Below, in pieces: positions 42,649 to 59,641 of a DNA stretch of 64,000 nucleotides. Each line of letters starts with the position of its first letter. Position 1 is the first letter of the stretch. Below the pieces are notes generated by a model. That model saw only the letters and a program-made list of their open reading frames with translations. It did not search any database and was not told the DNA's origin. Source of the stretch: an uncultured bacterium (GTDB lineage: Bacteria; Desulfobacterota_D; UBA1144; Nemesobacterales; UBA2774); NCBI GenBank assembly GCA_963825135.1, contig CAWGRW010000009.1, positions 992,001 to 1,056,000 on the forward strand. Reading direction: 5' to 3'. A program made the position numbers and the translations under genes.

Positions 42649-42963
42649 GCGGATTAAATCCCGGAATCTGCCTTATGTAGCTGTATGTTCCTGATTAAAA
42701 AATCTGTTTGTAAGGCGGGAGCGATAACTACGATTGAATTATGGTAACACAAATGAGGGTCGGCTTCTGTCATATTGAGTTATTACTTCAAACCTCGGTT
42801 TTTAAGTTTTAGTTTAAGTTTAGGATATTCCCCCATATATGTCAACAAAAGTCATGGACTTGCATATGCCCGATGGAACTTGGAACTACTCGCCGGTCCC
42901 GGATCAACTCAAGCGCCATCAATTAATACAATGAATAGCGAGACCGGGCCCGAATGAGTGCGA

Positions 42964-45900
42964 TTACCGCTGGGCGTAGTTTTCTCCCCGCCGCCTCCCT
43001 CTCAGACGGGAGAGGGAAAGTTTGGGGACGTAGCTCTGAATCTTGTCCATATATATATAAAAGACGGGCGTAAGGTACAGGGTGATGAGCTGAGAGAAAA
43101 GGAGGCCGCCTACCACAGTCAGGCCCAGCGGTCGTCGCGACTCGGCTCCCGCACCGCTGCTGAGAGCCAGCGGCAGCGCACCCAGGAGCGCAGCCATAGT
43201 AGTCATCATGATAGGACGGAAGCGGATGAGACAGCCCTGGTAAATCGCTTCGACGGGGCCCTTTCCCTCGTTCCTCTGCGCATCGAGCGCGAAATCGATC
43301 TGCATTATCGCGTTCTTCTTGACTATTCCGATAAGCATTATCAGCCCTACAAAACCGTAGACGTTTAGCTCCATGCCGAAAATAAAAAGAATGAGCAGAG
43401 CCCCGAACCCAGCCGAGGGGAGTCCCGAGAGAATCGTTACGGGATGAATGAAGCTCTCGTACAGAATCCCGAGGATCATATATATGACCAGGATCGAGAA
43501 AATAAGCAGGAGACCGAGTCCTCCGAGCGACTTCTGAAACTCCTGAGCGACGCCCTGGAACGTCGTGCTCATATTCGGGCGGCAGCGTATCGTGTACGGC
43601 CTTGTTAATGCTGCTTACCGCTTCCCCGAGCGAAACCCCGGGTTTCAGATTGAACGAAATTGAGACAGCCGGGAACTGCCCCAGATGGTTTATGGTTTTA
43701 GGGCCGAGGTTCTCTTTAAAAGTCGCGACCGTATCGAGCGGGATCAAGTGCTTGTCGGACGAATTGATATAGAGCTTCGACAGCGCCTCCGGGTCCATCT
43801 GATATTCAGGTTCGAGCTCCATGATAACCTTAAACTGATTCGTCGGCGCATATATGGTAGATACCCAGCTGTCGCCGTAAGCGTTGTTTAACGCATTCTC
43901 TATCTGGCCCGGCGACACGCCGAGGACGGCGGCTTTATCCCTGTCGATCTCTACATTCACTTGAGGATTTTTGATCTCGAGATCGCTCGTCACGTCCTGG
44001 AGCTCCGGCATGCCGCGCATTTTTTCTTCGAGTATAGGGGCGTATTTGTAGAGCTCCTCCAGATCGGGGCTCTGCACCGTGAACTGATAAAGGCTTTTTG
44101 ACAGCTGTCCTCCGAGGCGTATCTCCGGCGGGTCCTGCAGGTATGCCGTTACGCCGGGCACCTCCGCGAGCTTGGGCCTCAGCTCCTCAATAATCTCCGA
44201 AGAAGAAGGACGCTTGGAGCGTGGAACGAGGTGGAAAAACATTCTCCCCTGGTTAAGCCCGCTCGTACCCGACCCTCCCGAGCCTATCGCCGAAAAAAAC
44301 GCGTCGACGTAAGGGCTCTTCCTGGCTTCATCGGCTACCGCCATCTGGTATTCCTTCATCTTGTCAAACGATGTCCCCTGCGCCGCCTCCGTAATCGCAA
44401 ATATAGTGCCCTGATCCTCATTAGGCAGAAACCCCTTGGGTATTTTTACAAACAGGAATGCGGTGAAGATAAGAATCACTCCGTTCAACAATAAAAATGC
44501 CCTGCGGTGCTCGAGCACCCGCGTGAGGCTCCATTCGTAGGCCCTGAACATGGAGTCGAAATATCTCTCTGTCACGTTATAGAGGCGCCCGTGTGTTTTC
44601 TCCTTTTCGCTCCTGAGAAAGCGGCTGCAGAGCATCGGGGTAAGGGTAAGCGACACGAAACCCGATATAAGTATCGCGGCCGTGATCGATACGGCGAACT
44701 CGTTGAAGAGCCTTCCTATAACGCCGCCCATCAGGAGCACTGGAATGAATACGGCGGCGAGCGAGAGCGTCATCGAGACGAGCGTAAAGCTTATCTCCTT
44801 CGATCCGTCGAGAGCCGCCTCGATCGGGCTCTTACCCATCTCCAGGTGCCTGACTATGTTCTCGAGCATGACAATCGCGTCATCGACCACAAAACCCGTC
44901 GCAAGTATGAGGGCCATCATGGAAAGGTTATTCATGCTGAACCCGAGCATGTACATGACGATGAACGTCCCCACTATCGAGAGAGGGAGCGCGAGGCTCG
45001 GGATAACCGTTGCGGAGAGGTTCCTCAGGAAAAGAAATATGACCATGACGACAAGGCCCAGGGTCAGAAGCATGGTGAACTTCACCTCGGACATCGATTC
45101 CCTGATCGAAGCGGAACGGTCATAGAGAAGGTGGAGCTGTACCGACGGGGGGAGGTATGCCTTGAGTTTCGGCACGACCTCCTTGACCGCGTCCGCGACG
45201 GCTACGGAATTCGTTCCGGGCTGACGCTGTACGGCTAACACGACCGCCCTTATCGACCCCTGGGGCGTCACAAACCATGCCGCGTTCTTATCCTCTTCAA
45301 CGCTGTCGATTACCCTTCCCAGCTGTCCGAGGCGTACGGGAGAGCCGTCCCGGTAGGCTACTATGATGTCGCGGTAAGGCTCTGCGCTGTAAAGCTGACC
45401 GGTGGCGAGGACGGTAAACGCCTTATCATGACCGTAGAGCGTCCCGGTCGGCAGGTTCACGTTCGCGTTCCTGACCGCATTCTCCACCTCGTTTATTCCG
45501 ATGCCCTTACTCGAAAGCGCATCCGGGTCGAGCTGTATCCTGACAGCGTATTTCTGAGAACCGAAGATCTGGACCTGCGCCACGCCGCTGACCATGGAAA
45601 CACGCTGTCCTATGATGGTATCGGCGTATTCATTGAGCTCCCAGAGCGGGAGGGTGTCCGAGACAACGGCAAAATACAGAATCGGCTGATCTGCGGGGTT
45701 CACCTTCCTGTAGGTGGGCGGCTGGGGCATGTCCTGGGGGAGAAGCGGTGTTGCGCGGGAAATAGCGGTCTGGACGTCCTGGGCGGCTGAGTCGAGCTGC
45801 CTGCTGAGGTCAAACTGGAGCGTGATTTGGGTCGCGCCGAGCGCGTTCACGGAGGTCATGGAGCTCACGCCATCGATCGTTGAGAACTGACGCTCGAGCG

Positions 45901-46096
45901 GCGTGGCCACAGAGGACGCCATCGTTTCGGGGCTTGCTCCCGGAAGACTCGCGGTCACGAGGAGAGTCGGAAAATCCACATTCGGCAGGTCGCTCACAGG
46001 GAGAGCCCTGTAACCCACAATCCCGAAAAGCAGGATGCCGACCATTATGAGCGTCGTCATAATGGGTCTGCGAATGAAAATCCCGGATATGTTCAA
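42964..46096 (-). pseudogene. RND efflux permease (MdtB/MdtC-like) with one +1 frameshift near 43577; pseudogene or sequencing error
   Basis: FIRRP.., GFVVDDAIVMLENI in ORF 1; [17 protein letters not shown] in ORF 42964-43572; removing one base from CCGCCCGAAT joins them into about 1043 aa. Confidence 0.9.
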
Positions 46097-48563: not shown

Positions 48564-50093
48564 ATGATCGCTAAGGTCCTGTCGAGCGCAGTCCTGGGAG
48601 TAGACGCATACCTGGTCGAAGTCGAGGTAGACCTCGCGTTCGGCCTCCCGCAGTTCAACACCGTCGGGCTCCCCGAAGGGGCGGTCAGGGAAAGCAAAGA
48701 GCGGGTCAGGGCGGCAATAAAGAACTGCGGCTACGATTTCCCTCAGAGAAGGATTACGGTCAACCTCGCCCCCGCCGACATAAGAAAAGAGGGTTCGGCA
48801 TTCGACCTCCCCATATCCCTCGGCATCCTGTCCGCGATAGGCTTGATAGACCACGAGCTCCTGAGCTCATACGTAATCCTGGGCGAGCTCTCGCTCGACG
48901 GCAGGGTAAAGCCGATAAAGGGCGCCCTGCCCTCGTCCATTTGCGCGAGGGACTCGGGGTTAAAGGGCATAATCCTCCCCCGGGAGAACGCGGATGAGGC
49001 CGCCGTCGTCGAGGGTGTGGACGTATACGCGGTCGAGTCCCTTCAGGACATTGTCGAGTTCATAGCTGGGAAGAGGGGGATCGAGCCTACAAGGATTGAC
49101 GTAGGCTCGTTATTCACGAGGTCGAAGACTTACGACGTCGATTTTCACGAGGTGAAGGGGCAGGAGCATGTGAAACGCGCGCTTGAAGTCGCGGCGAGCG
49201 GCGGGCACAACGTGCTCATGATAGGCTCCCCGGGCACGGGAAAAACGATGCTCGCCCGGAGGCTCCCGACCATACTCCCCGACATGAGCTTCGAAGAGGC
49301 GCTCGAGACGACCAAGATATATTCCGTGTCGGGCCTCCTCCCCGACCATTCGTCGCTATACGCTACGAGGCCCTTCCGCTCCCCCCACCATACTATCAGC
49401 GACGCGGGTCTCATTGGCGGGGGTGCGATTCCCAAGCCGGGCGAGGTGAGCCTCGCTCATAACGGCGTATTATTTCTCGACGAGCTTCCCGAGTTCCGCA
49501 AAAATGTGTTAGAAGTCATGCGCCAGCCTTTGGAGGACGGCATGGTGACTATATCGAGGGCGTCCACATCGATCACGTACCCGGCCAACTTCATGCTCGT
49601 CGCCGCCATGAACCCCTGCCCCTGCGGCTATCACGGGGATCTGCAAAAAGAATGCACGTGCTCGCCCATACAGATACAGAAGTACAGGGCCAAGGTCTCG
49701 GGCCCTCTCTTAGACAGGATAGACATTCACATAGAGGTCCCGCCCGTGAGATATAAGGAGCTCGCCGACGAAGCGGGAGGGGAAGGCTCGGCCCCTATAA
49801 AGACCCGCGTGAATATGGCGCGTGAGATACAGAAGTTGAGGTTCAAGAGGAGCAAAATCCACTCGAATTCCCAGATGTCCCCGTCCATGGTGAGGAAGGC
49901 GTCCAGGCCCGACGATAAAGGGATAAAGCTGCTTGAGACCGCGATTGATAAACTGGGCCTGAGCGCGAGGGCTTATGACCGGATACTGAAAGTCTCCCGC
50001 ACTATCGCCGACCTCGAAGGTGCTGAGTCCGTCCTCGCCCACCACATATCGGAAGCAATTCAATACAGGTCCCTCGACAGGAGTCAGGTCTAG
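48564..50093 (+). CDS. comM: ComM/YifB Mg-chelatase-like AAA ATPase
   Basis: [54 protein letters not shown]. Confidence 0.96.
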
Positions 50094-50152
50094 TTCCGGA
50101 TCGAGGGTACTTGTAAAGGAACGGACCGCGACCACGGGCTATGCAGTGTTTA

Positions 50153-50533
50153 TCACACGTTCCTCGGCGTCAGGTGGCTCAAAATCAAGCCCGCGACGAC
50201 CCCGAGAAGGACGATCACCAATAAACTATCGACCATGGCCAGGACACGCCCGGCTACCGTGAACGGAACTATATCTCCATAGCCCACAGTCCCGGCGGTA
50301 ATAATGCTCCAGTAAAGGGCGTCAAAAAAAGTGAGCTTTTGATAACCGTTTGCGAGGCGGTACTCATTCTCGAACAGCATGAACAGGGAAGGCGATATGA
50401 ATGCCACGAGTATTAAAACCCCGAGTATGAAATTAATCATCATTCTTCTCAGGCGCACCACGCGCTTTTGCTCATAAAGAAGGACGGTGTTTTTTAACCT
50501 GAAAAAATCAGAGTCCATCGTATTTTCAGCCAC
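50153..50533 (-). CDS. Minimal two-TM potassium channel
   Basis: DALYWSIITAGTVGYGDIVP selectivity filter flanked by two TMs. Confidence 0.88.
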   Translation of the reverse strand: MAENTMDSDFFRLKNTVLLYEQKRVVRLRRMMINFILGVLILVAFISPSLFMLFENEYRLANGYQKLTFFDALYWSIITAGTVGYGDIVPFTVAGRVLAMVDSLLVIVLLGVVAGLILSHLTPRNV

Positions 50534-50544
50534 GTGAAGATCGA

Positions 50545-50707
50545 TTCGACAACCCGCGTTTTGAAAGGACGGTATTCACGGGGGGGGCTTTCCTACACCT
50601 TTGCAAATGCGGTCTTCGTCAAGCTCAATTACGCCCTTCGCATGCTTGGGTCGCCCGATTTCAACAACGAAAACACGATCGATCTGGCGTTCGGGTGGGT
50701 TTATTGA
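50545..50707 (+). pseudogene. 3'-terminal fragment of a probable outer-membrane beta-barrel gene
   Basis: FDNPRFERTVFTGG/LSYTFANAVFVKLNYALRMLGSPDFNNENTIDLAFGWVY* with a +1 slip in a G run; amphipathic strands and terminal aromatic; no 5' part present. Confidence 0.55.
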
Positions 50708-50755
50708 TTATCCGAGATCAAAGATCGGCAGTCATATTGCAGGCTAATTCTCTTT

Positions 50756-50811
50756 CCGCATATCAGTGTGAGGTCCGGTACAGGCTACTCGACAGGTATG
50801 GTATCCGCTGA
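50756..50811 (+). repeat. Degenerate copy 2 of a comM 3' end
   Basis: CCgCATATC...TACAGGctaCTCGACAGG vs comM CCaCATATC...TACAGGtccCTCGACAGG; reads HIS..V.YRLLDRYGIR* with a 1-nt gap. Confidence 0.6.
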
Positions 50812-51128
50812 TGATGAAAACTTCTCCGATTTAAATTCCTCATTAAGTTACGGGCATTCAAGCCGGATTTTCTCATCTGTGCCTATTGACTTTGGAAGAC
50901 GTTTTTGATTACACTCCTAAACAAAAGAGTGATTAGTAAGCTTATTCGCACGACACTCCGTATCGGGATGTTTCTACGAATTTTAATCCGCTCAATTAAT
51001 AATTCGGCGGCGGAATTGGCCGAAATCCGTTCCGTCACGGTCCCGCTGATGCGAAGTCGGCGGCCGGGAATGCACCATCAGCGTTGCGGTGCTTTCGGCC
51101 AATACTACTAGATCAGTGAGGAGTGCTA

Positions 51129-52558
51129 ATGTCGACACCAAAACCCGTTTTCGTCATTCCGACATACCGTCTGCGCGATGTCGCTGAAACGGTCGAGGCG
51201 TACGACCAGCACTTCCGGCGCAACGGCCATTCCCTCGACTTGATAGTTTTCGACGATTCCAGCGGTGCGAACCAGCAGAAGTACTATCCTCTCCTCGAAC
51301 AAACACGGACGCACAACCCGCTCTATTATGTCGGACCGAAGCAGAAAGAAGAGTTCTTGCATTACTTCTTCGGACGGCTGCGGGACCGCAAGCTGGAACC
51401 GCTGATCCGCAATCTGTTTCGCCCGAGCTACGGCGGGAACCGCAACTATACGCTGATGTACACGCTCGGCGATTTCATGGTCAGCGCCGATGACGATATG
51501 AGACCGATGGCCCTCATGGAGGATAGTCCCGAGACGTTGGAGGATAACGAGGTCTGCCGAGGTAAATTGATGCGTGCCGACTCCGGCGGGTTCACCGAGA
51601 AATCGTTCGACATTCTGGCCGCGTTTTTGGACGTTCTCGGCAAGCCGGTGCGGGATATCCCCGCCAACCACGAACGCGGCGAACTGCTAATGGACACTGC
51701 GATGGACTTAGAGACCAACACAAGCAGAGGGTTTGCGCGAGAAAACTCTCTCCTCCTGCAGACCGGAACGATCCCCGACACAGCCATTGTCAAGATGGCC
51801 CAGACGTTCCGGTCAGGGACCAACGACATCGACGCGCTCGATTTTGTCGAGATGTTCCTGGAGGACCCCACGCAGGTCCACCTCGACGACCTGAACGAGC
51901 TTTATGTACTGGTCAACTTCCGGCCGGCAGTCACGAAGCAGAACTGGCGTATGGACTGTGGAGTGGCAGCATACGACAACGAGTTCGGCTGCCGCCGTTC
52001 TTCCCGACTCGGCTCCGGTTCGAGGATTACATTTATCGGTTGTGGATTCAGCAAGACGGACTGGCGTCGGCGCACGTCGATGCAGCCCAACGCCACATCA
52101 AAAACAACTACATGCGAAATCCGCTGGCGGCGGAAGTTTTCAACGAAGAAGTCGCCAACCTCCTCAAGCGCAAGATCAAAGACAGCGTGTCGAATCGGGA
52201 CGAATTGAGCATCTCGTTCGACTACGACGGCGACGTAACTACCGAGGACAGTGAGGGCATCCTGGAGCTGATTACCGGGCTCCACGGTCGTATCTTGGCC
52301 GCCCAGACGGAAGCCGGGCCGGAACGCAGCCAGGCTCTCCAGTCGTTCGCAATCAGCCTGGAGCGCAGCTTCTATGGCTTTGAGCCTGACTTTTTTCAGC
52401 AAAACCTGATCCGCATTACCGACGACGTGATCAGCCAGTTCAAAGGATCGTTAGAACTCTGGCCCGCGCTTGTGGAAATCTGCTATCTGCGGAAGCACCG
52501 GGTGGGTTTGCCGCACCAAAGGGTTAAGAACCAGACCCGAGTAAAAGATGTTATTTAG
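51129..52558 (+). pseudogene. Uncharacterised GT-A-like protein of about 476 aa with one frameshift near 51989; pseudogene or sequencing error
   Basis: GAGGAG RBS; FVIPTYR, VFDDS, GGNRN, SADDD; adding one base gives continuous FGLPPFFPTRLRFEDYIYRLWIQQ. Confidence 0.75.
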
Positions 52559-52615
52559 CCGCAACATAATGTATAGCAGAGTGAATTAGTTTTACTAAGT
52601 CGGCTATCATCCATC

Positions 52616-52711
52616 ATGTTCGACGATAAATTTCAGCACACCAAAATCGAAACCTCGGGCGCTCTGATCAACCTCGTCCACGGGGGAAGGGGCAAGCCTC
52701 TTCTTCTCCTC
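52616..52711 (+). repeat. Truncated diverged duplicate of the 5' end of the hydrolase gene at 53288
   Basis: [32 protein letters not shown]; 28 nt identical (52641-52668 = 53313-53340). Confidence 0.93.
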
Positions 52712-52773
52712 ACCATCACCTCATATCTAAAGCCTTACTGTACAAGTCCCTCGACAGTGATGTAATCTGGTAA
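52707..52773 (+). repeat. Degenerate copy 3 of a comM 3' end
   Basis: 52717-52757 matches 50040-50080 at 32/41 nt ungapped (hand count), including 12 identical nt GTCCCTCGACAG; reads HLISKALLYKSLDSDVIW*. Confidence 0.85.
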
Positions 52774-52803
52774 TAAAGTTGATTGGGGCTTCAGATATTG
52801 AAC

Positions 52804-53253
52804 ATGACCGAATCAGAATTAAAAAAACTGTTAGTAAACAAGCTGCCCGGCGTAGATAACCACGGCGAGGTGGTGGAAGAAATTGGAGAAGGCAGCGTCC
52901 GCATCCGCCTGCCGTTTAAAGAGGAGTATATGGGCGAGGACATCTGGGGAAAATCGGGCTCCAGGGTCTTCTCCGGCCCTGTAACAATGGGTCTCGCCGA
53001 CACCTCCATGTATGCGTGCGTCCTGTCCGCGTTCGGGCAGGGAGTAATCCCGGTCATCGTTACCCTAACAATAAATTTCCTGAGCCCCGTAAAAGCGGCC
53101 GATCTTGTTGCGGAATCGAGAATTATAAGACGTGGAAAAAACCTGGTATATCTGGAGACATATCTCTTTAGCAACAGTATTCAGAAACCCGTCGCGCATA
53201 TAACCTCGACTTATGCAATACGTGACAGGGAAAGAGCCGATGTTGGTGATTGA
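52804..53253 (+). CDS. PaaI-family (hotdog fold) thioesterase
   Basis: FSGPVTMGLADT, TLTINFLSP, IIRRGKNL, VAHITSTY. Confidence 0.88.
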   Translation: MTESELKKLLVNKLPGVDNHGEVVEEIGEGSVRIRLPFKEEYMGEDIWGKSGSRVFSGPVTMGLADTSMYACVLSAFGQGVIPVIVTLTINFLSPVKAADLVAESRIIRRGKNLVYLETYLFSNSIQKPVAHITSTYAIRDRERADVGD

Positions 53254-53287
53254 AAAAGAGATACTTTGAAATTTCTATTGGAACAAC

Positions 53288-54190
53288 ATGCTCTATAAAA
53301 ATTTTACGCATGCCAAAATCGAAACCTCGGGCGCTCTGATAAACCTCGTACACGGGGGGAAAGGAAAGCCCCTACTTCTGCTGCACGGATACCCGGAGAC
53401 GCACGCGATGTGGCACGCTTACCGCGCCAAGGCTCGCGGAAAGACCTTCCACGTCGTATGCATTGACCTCCGAGGCTACGGCGACAGCTCGAAGCCCGAG
53501 TCCACACCTGACTACTACACTTATTCAAAGCGCGCGATGGCGAAGGATTGCATCGAGGTGATGGAGGCCCTCGGATATAAGAGATTCTTCGTAGCGGGGC
53601 ACGACAGGGGCGCGAAGGGTCACGCACCGGATGGCGCTCGATTATCCGGAGCGCATAGAAGGCCGCCTGCGTCATGGACATCGCCCCCACGCATACGATG
53701 TTCAAGCGCGCCGACAAGGCGTTCGCAACAGGCTACTACCACTGGTTCTTTTTAATCCAGCCCGACGGTCTCCCGGAAAAAATGATCGGGTGCGACCCGG
53801 AATACTATCTGAGAGAGAAGCTAAGGCGGTGGAGTGCGCCGGGAGCGCGGTTCGATGAGAATGCGGTAAGGGAGTACGTGTGGTGCTTCAGCGACCCCGC
53901 CGCCATACACGCGAGCTGCGAGGATTACAGGGCCGCAGCTACAATCGACCTCGTTCACGACGAGGAAGATTTCAGGTAAGAAGATCGCGTGTCCGCTGCT
54001 GGTGCTCTGGGGTGCAAAGGGGTTCATCAACCGGACGTACGATGTAATCGACACGTGGAGGGAAAAAGCCGTAGACGTAAGTGGGAATACGCTCGACTGC
54101 GGCCACTTCCTCCCCGAGGAAAAACCGGACGAAGTATGCGACGAGCTCATTAAATTCTTCTACGTCGATATAACCCTTGGTCAATTCTGA
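53288..54190 (+). pseudogene. Fluoroacetate/haloacetate dehalogenase-like alpha/beta hydrolase with about six +1 insertions
   Basis: [41 protein letters not shown] spread over four ORF-track fragments. Confidence 0.88.
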
Positions 54191-54655
54191 TCGGTAAAGA
54201 AATTCAAGGCCGGAAATAGCCCCCGCGTCCTCCGTCCTGTACCTCAAATATTCCTTTCTCAGAAACTCCTCGAAGCAAGTCTGCGTCTCTATGGCTTCTC
54301 TTTCCGAGTACGCGAACAATACTACGAGGTGGCGGCTCTTCAAAGCGCCGGTCTTCTCGCGAATATATTGATATTCTTTCTCGGATAGCCCGTAGGAAAT
54401 CCCGAACTCGGGAGTTTCATCCGTAGTAAAGAATCCGTGGTTGCTCATTTTCTCGGCGACGGCGTCGCACATGGCTCTCCCGAATCTCTTCGTCTCTTCC
54501 ACATCCTTTCTGAATAGACCGCCTATGAGCGCATATACGCCGCAATAGACCCTGGAATGATTATTCCTGATTATCCTGCATTTTGTATCCGGCAATTCCA
54601 CAAGATAAAGCGGCGATGGAGATATCGCGTTTAAGATAATGTCCTTTACGGTCAC
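53972..54655 (-). CDS. Hypothetical protein resembling the GatE insertion (GAD) domain; 3' end uncertain
   Basis: GAGGAGG RBS before [48 protein letters not shown]. Confidence 0.65.
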
Positions 54656-58078: not shown

Positions 58079-58110
58079 CTATCCACAAGTTGTTGATGGA
58101 TTGTGGACAA
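58079..58110. promoter_or_regulatory. DnaA boxes upstream of and overlapping the dnaA start
   Basis: CTATCCACA (58079-58087) and TGTGGACAA (58102-58110), opposed. Confidence 0.8.
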
Positions 58111-59641
58111 GTTGTCTTTCGATTTGGAGGAGCAGAGGAAATTGGCCGCTAAAAGAACGCCCCTGAAGCATAATCTCAGAACGCTTTTTACAGAAAAAAA
58201 GGATGACGGAAAGGGGCTCGAGTTTTTTATAGGACAGTCTTTCCGTCCCACAAAATCACACCAGAGAAACGAGGACGCCGCCGAAAAGAACATAGACTGG
58301 GACGGTGTTCTCGAAAGAATTAAAAAGAAATCCAACCCCCAGGTATTCTTCTGGTTCGCGCCGCTCAGACCTGTATCCGAAACAGAAGATTCGATCACAC
58401 TCCGGGCGAACAGCGAATTCGACAAAGACTGGATCAACAACCACTATCTCGAATTCATAGGGGACACGATAAGAGAGGTCCATGGAAAAACCTTATCGGT
58501 AATAATAGTTACGGAACAGGACAAATATTCCTCTCAGGAAGATAAAAAAGCGGGAGAAGAGCCCAAAGAATCGAGAGAGTCAGGACCCGGCAAGCTATAT
58601 ACGGGGTTTTTAAACCCGAGCTATTCTTTTGACAGGTTTATCGTCGGGCCGAGCAATCAGTTCGCGCACGCGGCTTCGACCGCGGTTGCAAGGAAACCGG
58701 GCGAAGCCTACAACCCTCTCTTTATTTACGGCGGGGTCGGCCTCGGAAAAACCCACTTGATAAATGCAATCGGCAACTACATCGTAAAAGCGACGTCCAA
58801 CATGGCCAGGGTTTGCTGCATCTCGGCGGAACATTTTACCAACCAGGTCATAAACAGCATCAAGTCAAACAAGATGGAAGAGTTCAGAAACAGGTACAGG
58901 TTCGGGTGCGATATACTCCTGATAGACGATATACAGTTCATCGCCGGGAAAGAGAGCACGCAGGAAGAGTTCTTCCATACGTTCAACACGCTCTACGAAT
59001 CCAAAAAACAAATCGTGCTCACAAGCGATAAGTCTCCGAAGGACATGTCCTACCTCGAGGAAAGGCTGAGGTCGAGGTTCGAGTGGGGTCTCATTACGGA
59101 TATTCAGCCCCCGGAAACGGAGACGAGGATTGCAATAATCAAGAACAAGGTCGAGGCGGGCGGGACTCCGCTGCCGAACGATGTAGCGCTGTACCTCGCT
59201 CAAAACACTACTTCCAACATCAGAGAGCTGGAAGGCACTCTAACGAATATAATCGCCCACGCCAAGCTGCTCAAAACGGAAATTACACTCGACCTAGCGA
59301 AGGAAGTGCTCAGAACCATTCTGAAGCATCAGGACAAAAAGTTCCTGAGCATTGAGAGCATCCAAAGAGAAGTCGCGAATTTTTACAGCTTGAAGGTTCA
59401 GGATATGAAATCCAATAAGAAACAGAAGAACATCTCTCTGCCGAGACAGATTGCGATGTATCTCTCGAGAAGATATACAGGGGCCTCCTATCCGGAGATA
59501 GGGGAGAAGTTTGGCGGAAAGGATCACTCGACCGTCATCCACGCCGTAAAGAAAATAGAACAGAACCTGGGCCAGGACCCGTCGCTTGAAAATACGGTGA
59601 AATCGCTCTCGAGAAAAATCGAGGGTCTCATAAGTGGATAG
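58103..59641 (+). CDS. dnaA: Chromosomal replication initiator DnaA
   Basis: YNPLFIYGGVGLGKTHL, IDDIQF, QEEFFHTFN, RLRSRFEWGL, GGKDHSTVIHA. Confidence 0.98.
   Translation: MDKLSFDLEEQRKLAAKRTPLKHNLRTLFTEKKDDGKGLEFFIGQSFRPTKSHQRNEDAAEKNIDWDGVLERIKKKSNPQVFFWFAPLRPVSETEDSITLRANSEFDKDWINNHYLEFIGDTIREVHGKTLSVIIVTEQDKYSSQEDKKAGEEPKESRESGPGKLYTGFLNPSYSFDRFIVGPSNQFAHAASTAVARKPGEAYNPLFIYGGVGLGKTHLINAIGNYIVKATSNMARVCCISAEHFTNQVINSIKSNKMEEFRNRYRFGCDILLIDDIQFIAGKESTQEEFFHTFNTLYESKKQIVLTSDKSPKDMSYLEERLRSRFEWGLITDIQPPETETRIAIIKNKVEAGGTPLPNDVALYLAQNTTSNIRELEGTLTNIIAHAKLLKTEITLDLAKEVLRTILKHQDKKFLSIESIQREVANFYSLKVQDMKSNKKQKNISLPRQIAMYLSRRYTGASYPEIGEKFGGKDHSTVIHAVKKIEQNLGQDPSLENTVKSLSRKIEGLISG

Follow-up and report, generated by a model that had tools for sequence, protein, structure and literature searches.

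Scraps of both flanking genes point to integrase-free gene accretion at a probable exchange hotspot between comM and a hydrolase gene

The interval between comM and an alpha/beta hydrolase gene in an uncultured bacterium of the order Nemesobacterales holds an array of whole genes and gene fragments punctuated by repeated comM 3′ ends. We analysed this array in a 64,000-nt stretch of DNA (the window; C9:992001–1056000 of a 3.13-Mb assembly in 17 contigs, hereafter G000), in which the order of features is the one given in a preliminary description: comM, a K+ channel gene, a porin 3′ scrap, comM-end 2, a GT-like gene, a hydrolase 5′ scrap, comM-end 3, a PaaI gene and the full hydrolase. Genes, scraps and scars lie on the forward strand except where stated. 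The left conserved flank, comM, is intact (48564–50093, 509 aa; Pfam Mg_chelatase, E = 1.1e-98, with ChlI and Mg_chelatase_C), and its protein is 94–98% identical in amino acid sequence to same-genus orthologues. Its working 3′ end, of the type ...YRSLDRSQV* (50004–50093; profile E = 2.1e-23), serves as the reference copy for the repeats. The right conserved flank, the hydrolase (53288–54190; Abhydrolase_1, E = 4.6e-16), is a mosaic, and dnaA follows about 8 kb downstream of comM (58103–59641).

Between the flanks, the first cargo gene is a small K+ channel gene on the reverse strand (50153–50533; Ion_trans_2, E = 2.7e-15). It adjoins a 174-nt 3′ scrap of a porin-like beta-barrel gene (50534–50707), which matches the last ~57 codons of porin-like genes of ~520–540 aa in relatives, with 41 aa at 95% identity to genome G009 and an extra base in a G run at ~50580; in relatives, the full-length porin-like gene closes an imelysin–DHOR–porin cassette. 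The non-coding stretch that follows (50708–51122) contains comM-end 2 (50759–50808; 23 of 30 positions shared with the scar of G009), a decayed scar of the ancestral comM end, and the leader (50809–51122) of the second cargo gene. This GT-like gene (51123–52558) has a frame broken near 51989 and matches no Pfam or NCBIfam family, and its protein gives a weak atlas lead to RGP/GT75 (score 0.90, 151 shared features). Its stop region is a fourth comM-end copy, the last 12 nt of an ancestral comM end, followed by the ancestral comM–hydrolase spacer of the type found in genome G007 (together 52547–52615, aligned with the working end of G007 and with G009, G004, G002 and C8, another contig of the window's own assembly). 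Next comes the first ~95 nt of the hydrolase (52616–52710; profile E = 2e-23; 88.5% identical to the C8 hydrolase and 80–84% to the full downstream copy), to which comM-end 3 (52717–52770; E = 2.2e-6 with model R1) is fused directly. This copy is orthologous to the scar that precedes PaaI on metagenome contig L055. The third cargo gene, encoding a PaaI/4HBT hotdog thioesterase (52783–53253; Pfam 4HBT, E = 7.1e-10), completes the array.

A repeat search in the window matched the comM end at 50040–50080 to 52717–52757 over 32 of 41 nt, and the hydrolase 5′ end at 52612–52710 to 53284–53382 at 80% over 99 nt. A profile built from the final 90 nt of comM at 20 loci gave comM-end 3 (52717–52769) an E value of 1.2e-4 when the window was searched and of 0.006 against the whole genome, and its local-alignment score was reached by none of 2,000 shuffles. 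An unrelated coding site elsewhere in the genome equals its profile score (17.2), so that by sequence alone this copy is a borderline case genome-wide, and the argument for it depends on position and orthology. Scoring the repeats against shuffles and a profile, as the preliminary description had proposed, left copy 3 significant but copy 2 weak when taken alone: comM-end 2 has a profile E value of 1.2 (50759–50798), and its score was reached by 10 of 2,000 shuffles against the comM end and by 1 of 2,000 against the G009 scar. It does immediately follow the porin stop, as do the clear comM-end scars of G009 (end3) and L055. Taking similarity, position and orthology together, we regard the comM-end repeats in the window as real.

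Two accompanying claims of the preliminary description found no support. The supposed structured leader of the GT-like gene has a fold z score of −0.79 and no Rfam match, and promoter-like sites ahead of that gene show no enrichment (3 found against 2.7 expected). A genome-wide self-BLAST for scars at other gene ends returned 208 rows of short local direct repeats, mostly in repeat-rich regions. Just upstream of PaaI, at 52751–52779, TCGACA of comM-end 3 and a following TAAAGT make up a sigma-70-like match; by this pattern match, a trapped gene end might supply the −35 box to the next cargo gene.

The junctions recur in independent data. We aligned the contigs of four public runs to the window, the bridging contigs being from populations other than the source. 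Contigs of run X1 span three junctions of the window at ~90–97% identity. One runs from the porin scrap to the GT leader, with the 100 nt around comM-end 2 replaced by other letters; a second, single contig crosses from the GT 3′ end into the hydrolase scrap (52441–52668); and a third, of 284 nt (52642–52925), passes from the hydrolase scrap through comM-end 3 into PaaI with 9 differences and no gaps. Another X1 contig joins 52540 to 52741, omitting the 200 nt between two comM-end remnants, and runs X3 and X4 carry an alternative join of the porin straight to PaaI. The window's junctions thus exist in other populations, where several forms coexist, and the contigs of the independent run indicate that they are not an assembly artefact.

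Single bases are another matter. Public runs do not share the extra or missing bases of the window at 50580, 51989, 53417, 53613 and 53659; three of them have one base fewer at 50580 and one T more near 51989. Compared with all relatives, the hydrolase has six insertions of one or two bases. Its broken frame, like those of the GT-like gene and the porin scrap, may reflect long-read assembly errors or real decay. A long RND pump open reading frame (ORF) upstream (42923–46096) also ends in sequence that looks out of frame.

We found comM in 37 of 41 genomes and mapped the downstream regions of 17 relatives and of contig C8. The interval between comM and the hydrolase is far from invariant, as had been expected: it measures 56 nt in G007, where the two flanks are directly adjacent, 1.4 kb in G002 and G012, ~4.4 kb in G017 and G020, 5.4 kb in G009, 6 kb in G003 and 13 kb in G004. 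Within one genus and its metagenome relatives, at least eight arrangements occur, built from a PHO4 transporter gene, an imelysin–DHOR–porin cluster, an OprB porin with a multicopper oxidase, an MBL–CobW pair, a lone gp19/contractile injection system (CIS) tube gene, the K+ channel, PaaI and the GT-like gene. The assembly itself holds a second haplotype on contig C8, consisting of an IS3 element, comM from aa 215, the K+ channel gene, a decayed scar and the hydrolase; window positions 49211–50538 are 98% identical to it, and the homology ends at 50538. A second genus has another gene, a GNAT, as the right flank.

The anticipated association of comM with PaaI is likewise present, as a module of comM end, PaaI and hydrolase on two metagenome contigs: L054 reads comM, K+ channel (Kch) scrap, comM end, PaaI and hydrolase, and L055 reads porin, comM end, PaaI and hydrolase scrap. 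PaaI is rare in the order, being found in two of its 101 genomes, the window's own included. The closest PaaI copies are those of L054 and L055, which, as ~80% relatives, are not the donor of the module. Other candidate donors were also set aside, namely Alphaproteobacteria metagenome-assembled genomes at 47–51% and one order-wide match at 62% without adjoining comM or hydrolase. The lone tube gene of G009 (L036, 577–1032) is of the T4 gp19/CIS type (Pfam, E = 3.5e-37; NCBIfam CIS5, E = 3.9e-21) and makes up a 720-nt unit that has a comM end on either side and no further phage or CIS genes next to it.

The comM-end scars recur with differing cargo and in differing number in at least two genera. 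In an order-wide scan, a sequence-only model of 25 comM ends gave matches in 54 of 101 genomes. Five of the 101 have extra comM ends downstream on the comM contig at E ≤ 0.01 (one each in G000, G004 and G010, two each in G009 and G095), and six further genomes have extra matches on other contigs. Metagenome contigs L054 and L055 also carry extra ends, and decayed scars that do not reach this threshold are seen in G002, G003 and C8. The scars represent at least seven junction types in two genera, with at least seven left neighbours (PHO4, porin, Kch scrap, gp19-like gene, MBL–CobW, a 91-aa ORF and hydrolase scrap). Their left limits, subject to an alignment uncertainty of about ±10 nt, lie at −125, −102, −89, −83, −80, −75, −71, −71, −53 and −41 nt from the comM stop, and one join falls ~25–50 nt after it.

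Scraps of the opposite flank also occur at the joins, as hydrolase 5′ ends of +95 nt in the window and of about +213 nt in G004 and L055. The latter two (L087 11832–12044 and L055 1085–1193) share one junction, in which hydrolase(+213) is joined ~25–50 nt after the comM stop, ahead of PHO4. This sharing indicates that the stacked form, as judged from its sequence, is inherited or transferred as a unit.

The types of comM end bear on the order of events. Scars beside the hydrolase have the end type RDDI* or RNNI* and the spacer of the working comM end of G007, whereas in genomes with cargo the working end belongs to other types, among them SQV*, GQI* and NQF*. This pattern fits the proposal that the old end is pushed outward. 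An inner scar of G009 and its downstream DNA are, moreover, orthologous to the working end of G004 and its downstream DNA, which fits a new end entering and displacing the old one. The window cannot be read as a simple age series, however, because its outer copy 3 is better preserved than its inner copy 2.

The description's statement that no recombinase is nearby was borne out more widely. Neither tyrosine nor serine recombinases (PF00589, PF00239) were found in or near the arrays of any of the five scar-bearing genomes (G000, G004, G009, G010 and G095). For the window's array, the nearest PF00589 match on the contig is more than 340 kb from comM, and PF00239 has no match in the G000 genome; the comM contigs of G004, G010 and G095 have no PF00589 match, and the nearest in G009 is ~345 kb away. 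The one recombinase close by is that of G010, at the border of an insert of 25 kb that splits comM mid-gene. Among 162 ORFs (139 + 23) of 21 downstream loci, no recombinase or transposase was found except the IS3 on C8. Neither these ORFs nor the five genomes revealed an integrase-bearing element at the exact comM-end site, which the preliminary description had named as a refuting case.

The same description had called the array integron-like. We found no IntI-type tyrosine recombinase (PF00589) adjoining it in the five scar-bearing genomes, and RNAalifold on 25 comM ends and scars predicted 0 pairs, that is, no attC-like hairpin; the comM ends show no conserved structure or motif beyond comM coding conservation. 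Integron-like therefore holds as an analogy only. Direct repeats of the comM 3′ end do bracket the cargo, as in integrative islands, but there is no single fixed crossover position. The scattered left limits, the join after the stop and the hydrolase 5′ scraps argue against a fixed att site.

Two further candidates were rejected. An 8-nt target duplication around the GT segment (TATGGTAT / GATGTTAT) is alike at 6 of 8 positions only, with no terminal inverted repeats by eye and no transposase, and we treat the pair as the overlap of two scar pieces. The ancestral spacer faintly resembles half a dif site by eye; it is not palindromic and lies near dnaA.

The flanks themselves bear marks of exchange. 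A tract of the hydrolase (approximately 53638–53988; alignment columns 350–700) is 95–99% identical to G009 within surroundings of 80–91%, from which we conclude that, on sequence grounds, this flank has recently undergone homologous exchange. As for the proposed mosaic ancestry of comM, sliding-window identity blocks are seen (for example, columns 180–600 are 72–83% identical to G002, G004 and G009, but 80–97% to G005 and L054), but nothing links these blocks to the scars. A candidate for the microhomology join that had been postulated lies where the hydrolase scrap meets comM-end 3 (52700–52725). This apparently illegitimate join, hydrolase(+~100)::comM(−53), has an imperfect overlap of ~5–8 nt, CTCCTC(A/G)C, with relatives standing in as proxies for the parents. 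As for comM serving as the reusable anchor, comM-end scars do recur, but comM is not the sole anchor, given the hydrolase 5′ scraps in the window, G004 and L055. The homologous crossover for the window's copy 3 may just as well have lain in the hydrolase.

We read this record as integrase-free accretion at a two-flank exchange hotspot rather than at a comM-specific capture site, and give a probability of about 0.6 to a flank-anchored hotspot in which alternative cargo alleles pile up through illegitimate joins formed close to where homology ends. From the footprints we infer by which pathway recombination proceeded, in which direction each event went and by which route the DNA entered. The comM–hydrolase interval, ~8 kb from dnaA, would be a hypervariable cargo site whose contents relatives swap by homologous recombination in both flanks. 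Occasionally one side of the exchange would close instead by an illegitimate, microhomology-type join near the end of the flank homology, that is, by homology-facilitated illegitimate recombination (HFIR); equally, one crossover could bring in a circle that includes a flank fragment. By either route, the incoming allele would be added beside the resident one rather than replace it, and a flank scrap would be trapped at the join, consisting of the last 40–125 nt of comM, the first 95–216 nt of the hydrolase, or both. A junction of right-flank start to left-flank end would be the product of two alleles of one locus in tandem. The window would then be a stack of comM; K+ channel; porin scrap with an old comM end; GT-like gene with 12-nt remnant, spacer and hydrolase scrap, joined to a comM end with PaaI; and hydrolase.

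Several observations weigh against this interpretation. The comM-side scars (at least seven types) far outnumber the hydrolase-side scraps (two types), and all comM-side break points but one lie within ~125 nt of the stop. Such clustering would not be expected of purely random illegitimate joins without an added assumption, such as joins favoured at the homology border or the loss of long repeats. In a sister family, f7 (G042, G044, G046 and G051; L089–L099), a full comM is accompanied by partial comM 3′ pieces of ~130–520 nt on other contigs. The microhomology at the join is approximate, its parent sequences being approximated by relatives only, and a recombinase encoded elsewhere may act in trans on the arrays. 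No public run matched the source sample, the highest share of the window's sampled words in any of them being 0.15, so that the bridging contigs come from relatives. On the delivery side, the genome has genes for ComEC, DprA and ComM, and natural transformation is the presumed route; ComEC and DprA were matched also in 10 and 11 of 14 control genomes, and such genes are common in non-transformable controls too. The origin and competence context drawn in the preliminary description is thus present, with dnaA ~8 kb from comM and ComEC and ComM encoded, but most control genomes carry such genes as well.

The scars could alternatively be att sites of integrative elements that target the comM 3′ end and bring a replacement end, with repeated integration producing tandem accretion and with integrases that were lost or act in trans. 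Repeated gene 3′ ends around cargo beside an intact gene are reportedly the usual footprint of such elements, most scars start in a fairly narrow zone 71–89 nt before the stop, the lineage does have comM-targeting elements, though mid-gene ones, and every genome examined has several tyrosine recombinases elsewhere. We nevertheless consider this explanation unlikely: neither the arrays of the five scar-bearing genomes nor their surroundings contain an integrase or resolvase, and the 162 ORFs include none; the left limits range from −41 to −125 nt, with one join after the stop; scraps of the opposite flank gene sit at joins; the cargo consists of single housekeeping-type genes with truncated neighbours (the Kch and porin scraps); and on the sole viral contig that matched this comM end, comM is intact and the phage genes lie upstream of it. 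Chance repeats, or a chimeric assembly of co-occurring strains, are very improbable. The second locus haplotype on C8, the many single-base indels in the assembly, the unrelated site that equals the profile score of copy 3 and the lack of profile significance of copy 2 would suit such an origin, but the contigs of another run span all three critical junctions, which largely refutes it, clear orthologous scars exist in L054, L055, G009 and G004, and no shuffle reached the score of copy 3.

An integrase-free cassette cycle is a further alternative, in which recombination between comM ends loops out a circle of cargo and comM end that re-enters at any comM end by a single crossover, so that the comM end acts as both attI and attC. 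Single-gene units between comM ends (the gp19-like gene in G009 and PaaI in the window) have the form that such a cycle predicts, as has the X1 contig that omits the DNA between comM-end remnants, and PMC3240628 describes single crossovers with circles in E. coli by which the homologous segment was duplicated over 109–950 bp. Circular forms, however, were not seen. Repeats of 40–125 nt at 70–95% identity are generally regarded as poor RecA substrates, the hydrolase scraps and truncated cargo still require illegitimate joins, and the comM ends hold nothing conserved beyond their coding sequence, all of which makes the cycle improbable. We think it quite improbable, too, that the last ~40–125 nt of comM are a true reusable recombination site, with cassettes bearing a comM tail captured, excised and re-captured without a linked integrase, through general recombination or an unlinked, unrecognised enzyme; if true, this site would be an enzyme-free counterpart of the integron beside the replication origin in an uncultured phylum.

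Flank-anchored stacking, the reading we prefer, resembles several known systems in part. HFIR has reportedly been studied in Acinetobacter, pneumococcus and Pseudomonas stutzeri. According to PMC3240628, experiments have described it in three naturally competent species. The likeness lies in one homologous crossover in a conserved flank combined with an illegitimate microhomology join, so that DNA is gained without a mobile-element enzyme. The process here, by contrast, is deduced from natural footprints; its joins gather where homology ends and leave flank ends in duplicate, where typical HFIR deletes recipient DNA, and the same locus is affected repeatedly in different genera, with alleles becoming stacked. 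Minimal mobile elements of Neisseria were defined by Saunders and Snyder (2002) and Snyder (2007), as cited in PMC3787668, and the comM–hydrolase site fits the definition in the form quoted there. In both, differing whole-gene cassettes lie between the same conserved flanks in close relatives, with no mobility genes and with homologous exchange in the flanks; the present locus differs in its tandem-stacked alleles punctuated by scraps of both flank genes, and in belonging to an uncultured lineage. Relative to HFIR footprints and minimal mobile elements, the added feature is therefore stacking with flank scars.

Other comparisons are looser. The integrative and conjugative element (ICE)/cis-mobilizable element (CIME) arrays of Streptococcus thermophilus are said to grow by tandem accretion at a gene 3′ end, and tandem SGI1 is reportedly another accretion of integrative elements. 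As in our locus, the target gene stays intact and direct repeats of its 3′ end divide the cargo into an array; here, however, the arrays lack an integrase, the crossover point varies and the joins contain scraps of the other flank. With integrons, as generally known, the locus shares an ordered array of mostly single-gene units beside a fixed site; it differs in having no IntI and no attC hairpin, in its mixed orientation (Kch and PHO4 are antisense) and in the truncated genes inside it. AbaR/Tn6022-type transposons of Acinetobacter target comM, so that comM is a landmark in both cases, but comM-targeting elements cut the gene in its middle (here at ~aa 215–245) and encode either a transposase or a large serine recombinase, whereas the arrays follow an intact comM.

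One-flank-anchored illegitimate joins have mostly been shown in laboratory transformation, and clear natural footprints are few. The locus offers a layered record in an uncultured lineage: its junctions are of at least seven types across two genera, both flanks have left scars, and alternative forms co-occur in environmental samples. It suggests that genes can pile up beside a conserved gene without mobile-element machinery, cautions in annotation that repeated gene ends need not imply an integrase-borne island, and is well suited to asking whether joins favour the border between homology and heterology.

Two side observations concern the flank genes. A 227-aa ORF on the reverse strand (53972–54655) lies antisense over the hydrolase 3′ end; only its first ~154 codons match a separate gene of relatives, and the ORF as listed is probably over-extended. 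In several relatives, comM is split at ~aa 215–245 by inserts of 6–32 kb, a second, mid-gene hotspot apart from the 3′-end arrays. These inserts lie at G007:C6 465133–472781, G010:C9 26595–53683, G014:C1 861961–895667, G024:C4 909175–926149 and G003:C5 229053–260806, and on contig C8 of G000 (L049). The insert of G010 has a 552-aa serine recombinase ORF at its edge, and on C8, which belongs to the same assembly as the window, comM starts at aa 215 next to an IS3-type transposase.

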